Assembly: GCF_036507355.1 (NCBI RefSeq)
Contig: NZ_AP027877.1
DNA from: Escherichia coli
Lineage (GTDB): Bacteria > Pseudomonadota > Gammaproteobacteria > Enterobacterales > Enterobacteriaceae
DNA length: 64,000 nt
Direction: 5' to 3' (one strand)
Shown here piece by piece: positions 58,703 to 59,915 of this stretch. The translations under genes were made by a program, and so were the position numbers. Under the pieces are notes generated by a model, which made no database searches, was not told the origin of the DNA, and saw nothing but the letters and a program-made list of their open reading frames with translations. Within the stretch, counting starts at the first letter, position 1; every line of letters begins with the position of its first letter.

Positions 58703-58961
58703 TTTCATACCTCAATGGCCCAATTTACACTGGGTCATTACTCATAACACCTGCTAATGCTTTACATCTCCTTCGCGTTTGTATATTTTCTTTATCACTT
58801 GCAGAAATGCGATGCTACGCCTTGCTCCGTAACTCACCCCATTGATTAACTTATTGAAATAGTTGATTATGATGAGCAAAAGCGTTCCGTTCCAATTAGA
58901 CATAAGATTATTGTAATTTTTTTAAATATTATTTTTCCATGAATAAAATTGGAGTAAGTGC

Positions 58962-59915
58962 GTGGATAGTAATAATTAAATTGAATCCTGTTTAAGCAGA
59001 AAATCGTCAGAAGGTAAACCACAAATATTTACAACCTTACGAAATATTGATCTTAATCTTCTGACTATTTTTGAAGCTGTATATGTACATAAAGGGATCG
59101 TTAATGCAGCGAAAGTGCTTAATCTGACCCCCTCGGCAATCAGTCAGTCTATTCAGAAACTGCGCGTTATATTCCCTGACCCATTGTTTATTCGCAAAGG
59201 CCAAGGTGTCACTCCTACCGCATTTGCGATGCATCTACATGAGTATATCAGTCAGGGCCTTGAGTCCATTCTTGGCGCGCTGGATATCGAAGGAAGCTAT
59301 GATAAGCAACGAACGATAACTATTGCGACCACCCCCTCGGTCGGAGCCCTGGTCCTTCCTGTCATTTATCGGGCGATTAAAACTCACTATCCGCAGCTTT
59401 TACTGCGCAACCCGCCCATCAGCGACGCGGAAAACCAACTCAGTCAGTTTCAAACCGATCTCATCATCGATAACATGTTTTGCACCAATCGTACGGTGCA
59501 ACATCATGTTCTGTTCACCGACAATATGGTGTTAATTTGCCGCGAGGGAAATCCACTACTCTCTTTAGAAGATGACAGAGAGACTATCGACAACGCTGCA
59601 CATGTACTCCTGTTACCGGAAGGACAAAATTTCAGCGTTCTGCGGCAGAGAATTCAAGAGATGTTTCCGGACCGGCAGATCAGCTTCACCAGCTACAACA
59701 TTTTGACAATCGCTGCACTGGTTGCCAACAGTGACATGTTAGCGATTATTCCCAGCCGTTTTTATAACCTGTTTAGCCGTTGCTGGCCGCTGGAAAAACT
59801 GCCTTTTCCGTCCTTAAATGAGGAGCAAATAGATTTCTCTATCCACTACAACAAATTCAGCCTGCGTGATCCCATCCTGCACGGAGTAATAGATGTTATC
59901 CGTAATGCATTTTGA
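58962..59915 (+). pseudogene. ybeF: LysR-family regulator ybeF with an in-frame TAA at codon 6; longest intact ORF (GTG 59115..59915, 266 aa) lacks the first HTH helix
   Basis: SD GGAG then GTG 58962, GAT AGT AAT AAT, TAA at 58977; the same frame continues (IESCLSRKSSEGKPQIFTTLRNIDLNLLTIFEAVYVHKGIVNAAKV) into the annotated ORF. Confidence 0.7.

Follow-up and report, generated by a model that had tools for sequence, protein, structure and literature searches.

The question raised by this locus is whether ybeF, a gene for a LysR-type regulator lying between lipB and lipA, can still give rise to a DNA-binding protein in an Escherichia coli strain in which its sixth codon is a stop. The window, i.e., the whole stretch of DNA analysed, comprises 64,000 nt of contig NZ_AP027877.1 (assembly GCF_036507355.1). 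The identity of the gene, the origin and reality of the stop, the products still conceivable from the interrupted frame, and the likely consequences for YbeF and for the neighbouring lip genes are considered in turn. All features of the ybeF-lipA region are on the + strand.

The ybeF locus and its reading frame

The gene order in the window, dacA-ybeD-lipB-ybeF-lipA-tatE, matches that of annotated E. coli references. When codon 6 was repaired to Gln, the conceptual translation matched NF008554, the NCBIfam equivalog for the YbeF family transcriptional regulator, with 612.6 bits (cutoff 277) over positions 1-317 of the 317-position model. The equivalog match and the conserved gene order confirmed that the gene between lipB and lipA is ybeF, as the earlier note on this DNA had proposed. 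A Shine-Dalgarno motif GGAG (58951..58954) is located 7 nt 5' of GTG 58962, and its anti-SD duplex of -5.9 kcal/mol was the best among the candidate starts. The frame is shut upstream by an in-frame TAA at 58944, and GTG 58962 is therefore the first possible ybeF start; the same GTG is used by PGAP for ybeF in E. coli A30 and in an O157:H7 strain. Positions 58962-58979 read directly as GTG GAT AGT AAT AAT TAA, so the residual ORF (58962..58979) comprises five codons, fM-D-S-N-N, and is closed by a premature TAA at codon 6 (58977..58979). The motif, the start, and the stop are all present as first described.

Downstream of this stop the frame remains uninterrupted for 311 codons up to the normal ybeF stop at 59913-59915; this remainder (58980..59915) contains no frameshift and has no usable start left, the TAA at codon 6 being the single internal stop. 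In the full-length conceptual translation, Pfam detected the LysR winged-HTH domain HTH_1 (PF00126; residues 31-89, 59052..59228; E = 2.5e-14) and an intact LysR substrate-binding domain (PF03466; residues 116-316, 59307..59909; E = 5e-16). The first canonical in-frame start 3' of the premature stop is GTG 59115 (codon 52). An uninterrupted frame for the 317-aa YbeF is thus absent from the window, and a complete HTH is not translatable from a canonical start, since the only such restart, at codon 52, corresponds to HTH_1 position 22 and is without a Shine-Dalgarno motif. The earlier observation that the frame stays open past the TAA held, but its reference to the first helix was imprecise: the stretch lost is HTH_1 positions 1-21 plus a conserved N-terminal extension of 30 residues. 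Judged from its sequence, the locus is a ybeF allele by descent, but a predicted pseudogene or null allele and not a functional member of NF008554.

Several other features were recorded in the window. The left end of an IS1 element (GGTAATGACTCCAACTTATTGAT...) begins at 63716, and the element fills the rest of the window (63716-64000) and continues beyond it. It interrupts pagP about 23 codons in; the remnant occupies 63224-63715 on the - strand and contains a 156-aa ORF (63224-63694) without the signal-peptide region. A few further genomes of E. coli (tcmA_3, MB51) align across the IS1-pagP junction without a break, and the site may be a recurrent IS1 target. A direct repeat of 148 nt (5393-5540 and 5579-5726), with copies that are 96% identical and begin 186 nt apart, takes in the final ~56 nt of kdpE together with adjoining downstream sequence; the 3' end of kdpE appears to have been duplicated locally in tandem. 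The djlB gene (41495-42922, - strand) is intact in the window; in strain 100416, the complete reference closest to it, the annotation gives djlB as a pseudogene ('internal stop'). Diverged direct repeats at 39767-40199 and 42564-42996 (73-76% identity, 2,797 nt apart) correspond to the paralogous pairs djlC-ybeU and djlB-ybeR.

Origin, reality, and rarity of the stop

The complete RefSeq genomes nearest to the window showed 98.7-99.2% identity over 25 kb. The closest E. coli alleles of ybeF, those of A30 and the O157:H7 strain, carry C at 58977, and alignment to them confirmed the explanation offered at the outset, a single C-to-T change turning CAA (Gln) into TAA. Over 1,401 bp the window differed from A30 at three positions only (58977, 59204, and 59638) and from the O157:H7 strain at the same three plus two more. 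The difference at 59204 is synonymous, and that at 59638 (59638..59638) is a lineage-specific G-to-T missense change, G226V, at a position that is variable among orthologues. The window is thus set apart from the nearest intact allele by no more than three substitutions (a nonsense, a missense, and a synonymous one) and by no frameshift, and the lesion therefore looks recent. The intact K-12 gene (b0629) and the Enterobacteriaceae orthologues share with the window the locus, the GTG start, and the Shine-Dalgarno motif at 98-99% nucleotide identity; they differ from it in having CAA (or AAA) at codon 6, where the window has TAA together with the additional G226V change. Sense codons were also found at codon 6 in other genera. 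The premature TAA is derived relative to the intact orthologues, as expected of a pseudogene by nonsense mutation.

A substitution of a single base may also arise from sequencing or assembly, in which case the true base at 58977 would be C and ybeF would be intact. The rarity of the allele is in keeping with such an error: a 61-mer around the TAA was found in none of the 5,426 complete RefSeq E. coli genomes, and in the 5,426 complete E. coli genomes a 31-mer search with the T obligatory in every megablast seed word also returned no match, while the CAA control 31-mer matched 393 genomes. No match to the exact TAA allele was detected in the metagenome contigs scanned. Against an error, ERR3330519 as assembled in Logan has the same TAA; this assembly departs from the window at one base (58937) in 6.8 kb and is thus a separate assembly from a close relative. 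Further, the exact 266-aa product of the ORF downstream of the stop has been deposited in GenBank (BED23322.1 [Escherichia coli], from a contig of 4,643,937 bp) and recurs on five read-set assembly contigs from several sample blocks, and position 58977 is outside any homopolymer run that could favour a substitution error. The initial worry about a sequencing error is largely answered by the independent assembly, and an error at this base is now very improbable. The TAA allele is real but rare.

Products conceivable from the interrupted frame

Orthologues of YbeF were collected from more than 15 enterobacterial genera, including Salmonella, Citrobacter, Kosakonia, Enterobacter, Leclercia, Lelliottia, Kluyvera, and Cedecea, and these keep the long form, nearly all proteins being 317 aa in length. 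Their alignment shows an invariant M1, a similar D/S/N-x-N-N pattern over residues 2-5, and variable residues 6-18; little or no variation is seen in residues 20-36 (PQIF.TLRNIDLNLLTI), and residues 20-51 as a whole are almost invariant. This conservation indicates that the N-terminal extension preceding the Pfam HTH domain is a translated part of YbeF. The premature TAA was present in no orthologue of the alignment and in no complete E. coli genome. Programmed recoding and a regulatory upstream mini-ORF were considered as well and were rejected, the stop and its context not being conserved among relatives.

The same alignment bears on the mechanical 266-aa ORF that begins at GTG codon 52 (59115..59915) and underlies BED23322.1. 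It could be supposed that this short form is the native, functional protein and that the region upstream is merely a leader; the product is annotated in GenBank, and its match to the YbeF model still reaches 510 bits. It aligns, however, to NF008554 positions 52-317 only and lacks the first 21 of the 60 HTH_1 positions, in agreement with the original remark that a product started at 59115 would be without part of its DNA-binding domain. HTH_1 positions 1-21 correspond roughly to the first helix and the greater part of the second in the three-helix bundle of the LysR-type winged-HTH. The GTG at 59115 has no Shine-Dalgarno motif, with a duplex energy of +1.2 kcal/mol versus -5.9 kcal/mol at the native GTG 58962. 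Orthologues sharing the TAA and starting at the downstream GTG, named in the earlier note as the finding that would make the short form native, were not encountered: none has the stop, and the 317-aa protein with its almost invariant residues 20-51 is the form kept across the genera. A native short form is scarcely credible, and the comparative data have already refuted it. Given the missing Shine-Dalgarno motif, the missing HTH_1 positions, and the conserved long form, the 266-aa ORF is best regarded as an ORF-calling artefact. The locus should accordingly be flagged as a pseudogene by annotators, and the product from GTG 59115 (cf. BED23322.1) should not be deposited.

More relevant to the residual activity of YbeF are the non-canonical starts. 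Two in-frame candidates were noted, an ATT at codon 7 (58980), which directly abuts the stop, and an ATA at codon 22 (59025), which is preceded by a weak Shine-Dalgarno motif, AGAAGG (-4.7 kcal/mol). Reinitiation at the former, initiation at the latter, or readthrough of the TAA might make the allele leaky (hypomorphic) and supply a little YbeF with a complete HTH. A protein without residues 1-6 might work, residues 6-18 being variable in the orthologues, and the undamaged state of the other 311 codons would also fit ongoing selection on a low-level product. The undamaged remainder is, however, equally explained by the recency of the lesion, at three changes from the nearest allele, and selection for trace amounts of protein need not be invoked, as about 19% of genomes can do without the gene. 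Were translation to begin at codon 22, the invariant P20 and Q21 would be missing. In E. coli, initiation from ATT or ATA takes place at no more than about 1% of the rate from ATG, and no stop codon terminates more efficiently than TAA; both facts speak against appreciable leakage. Taken with these points, a leaky allele is improbable.

The 311-aa 'MEPCLS...' YbeF proteins (P0013 and P0015) were examined as possible proof of a start at ATT codon 7 and were discarded as artefacts of contigs beginning at codon 2, on which the gene caller had settled for the first codon it could accept, the ATT. In several draft assemblies, contigs of about 5 kb open exactly at ybeF codon 2; for example, positions 1-16 of DAEVRC010000171.1 (GCA_019886205.1) equal the window from 58965 onward. 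Such contig ends point to a repeat or IS inserted at the ybeF start codon, or immediately before it, in the strains concerned.

The reading preferred here, and held to be very probable, is a loss of function that is complete or nearly so (a null or near-null allele), of recent date, and restricted to one lineage. The C-to-T transition converts codon 6 from CAA (Gln) to TAA, and ribosomes starting at the native GTG 58962 would release a peptide of five residues. Because no later canonical start with a Shine-Dalgarno motif restores the complete winged-HTH, little or no DNA-binding YbeF is expected. We infer that YbeF is most likely abolished in a small E. coli lineage.

Probable loss of YbeF and its expected consequences

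The earlier note had further suggested that loss of the regulator may alter the control of the adjoining genes. Genomic SELEX has assigned separate constitutive sigma-70 promoters to ybeF and lipA in K-12 (PMC3946193), and both are present in the window. The ybeF promoter, TTTACA-15-TATATT (58761..58787), lies in the lipB-ybeF spacer, is identical to the K-12 constitutive RpoD promoter (PMC3946193), and was partly caught by the consensus scan. The lipA promoter, ATGGCA-17-TACATT (59957..59985), matches its K-12 constitutive counterpart (PMC3946193) and is intact in the ybeF-lipA spacer. These assignments rest on the published K-12 promoters and not on the consensus scan, since the promoter and terminator scan returned consensus-level matches only and no convincing terminator 3' of ybeF. 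As lipA has its own promoter unchanged, its expression would not depend on read-through from ybeF, and Rho-dependent polarity from the early stop should, we infer, matter little.

The nearest experimental counterpart is the Keio ybeF deletion in K-12 BW25113, which is the expected functional equivalent of the window allele with regard to YbeF loss. The two differ in that the BW25113 mutant is a laboratory strain from which the gene was cleanly removed by engineering, with a measured phenotype, whereas the window allele is a natural nonsense mutation with a predicted one. The deletion strain was viable, and RNA-seq revealed 67 differentially expressed genes, with a 3.5-fold drop in lrhA and a rise in the FlhDC iModulon (PMC9068703). 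In the same work, ChIP-exo located three YbeF sites in K-12, and the authors suggested flagellar roles and possibly a role in citrate use. No lipA or lipB effect of the deletion is mentioned in the main text or the available supplements of PMC9068703, and a literature search for YbeF control of lipA or lipB found no published evidence. The proposal of altered lipB/lipA control is therefore unsupported: both promoters are in place, and the effects described in the K-12 study concern lrhA and FlhDC, the lip genes not being mentioned. Expression of lipB and lipA is expected to be unaffected by ybeF loss, and the phenotype, extrapolated from the K-12 deletion, would be mild, with lrhA lowered and the FlhDC flagellar regulon raised.

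Inactivation of ybeF was found to be common in the species. A segment of 386 bp (59490-59875) is absent from 1,054 of the 5,426 complete E. coli genomes (19%). In the deletion alleles inspected, 59486-59877 was lost alone or together with 59137-59331, and PGAP annotates the remnants as 'frameshifted; incomplete' pseudogenes. Another allele is cut at 59602 by the IS4-family element ISVsa5 (IS10-like), giving a 214-aa product (P0080) with 366 members in the protein collection; the ISVsa5 insertion after window position 59602 was seen at positions 3143-3279 of loci L009 and L010. In three of the four ybeF-lesion genomes inspected, lipB and lipA were intact, and the fourth, 52F4, is also without most of lipA. 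In the latter (E. coli 52F4, NZ_CM147848.1), the deletion equals window 58885-60933 and removes all of ybeF with about 810 bp of lipA; all that survives of lipA is a 3' remnant with a pseudogene annotation, so that either lipoate auxotrophy or an assembly problem would be expected.

The deletion-remnant pseudogenes of MS8345 and OV24 resemble the window allele as inactivating lesions of ybeF found in natural isolates between an undamaged lipB and an undamaged lipA, but they carry an internal deletion of the common type, whereas the window allele is a very rare point nonsense with the remainder of the gene undamaged. The ybeF::ISVsa5 allele is likewise an independent natural inactivation; it is truncated at the C-terminus and keeps the HTH, whereas the window allele is blocked at the N-terminus. 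As E. coli lineages have repeatedly lost ybeF by other routes, the TAA allele is in this sense ordinary, and it belongs to a broader picture of ybeF as a gene that E. coli can spare and that has been inactivated many times in the species. An origin of the window from a broadly decaying Shigella-type genome was rejected: ybeF alone has an internal stop among the 56 genes aligned over their full length, and a single IS1 (in pagP) was present. With one gene of 56 so affected, the stop appears to be a specific hit on a dispensable gene and not a sign of general decay.

Repeated loss of ybeF could also reflect positive selection in some niches, for instance with flagella and motility derepressed via lower lrhA, and not just neutral decay. 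We regard this as rather unlikely, although the data at hand neither support nor exclude selected loss; if it were true, the window allele would be a fresh, clean case for testing it. On its own, the nonsense allele matters little, being one more natural null of a non-essential LysR-type regulator that is poorly characterised. With the rest of ybeF undamaged, it nevertheless represents a natural single-base knockout, and, used alongside the frequent deletion alleles, it could be of service in testing the role of YbeF and whether its loss is selected.
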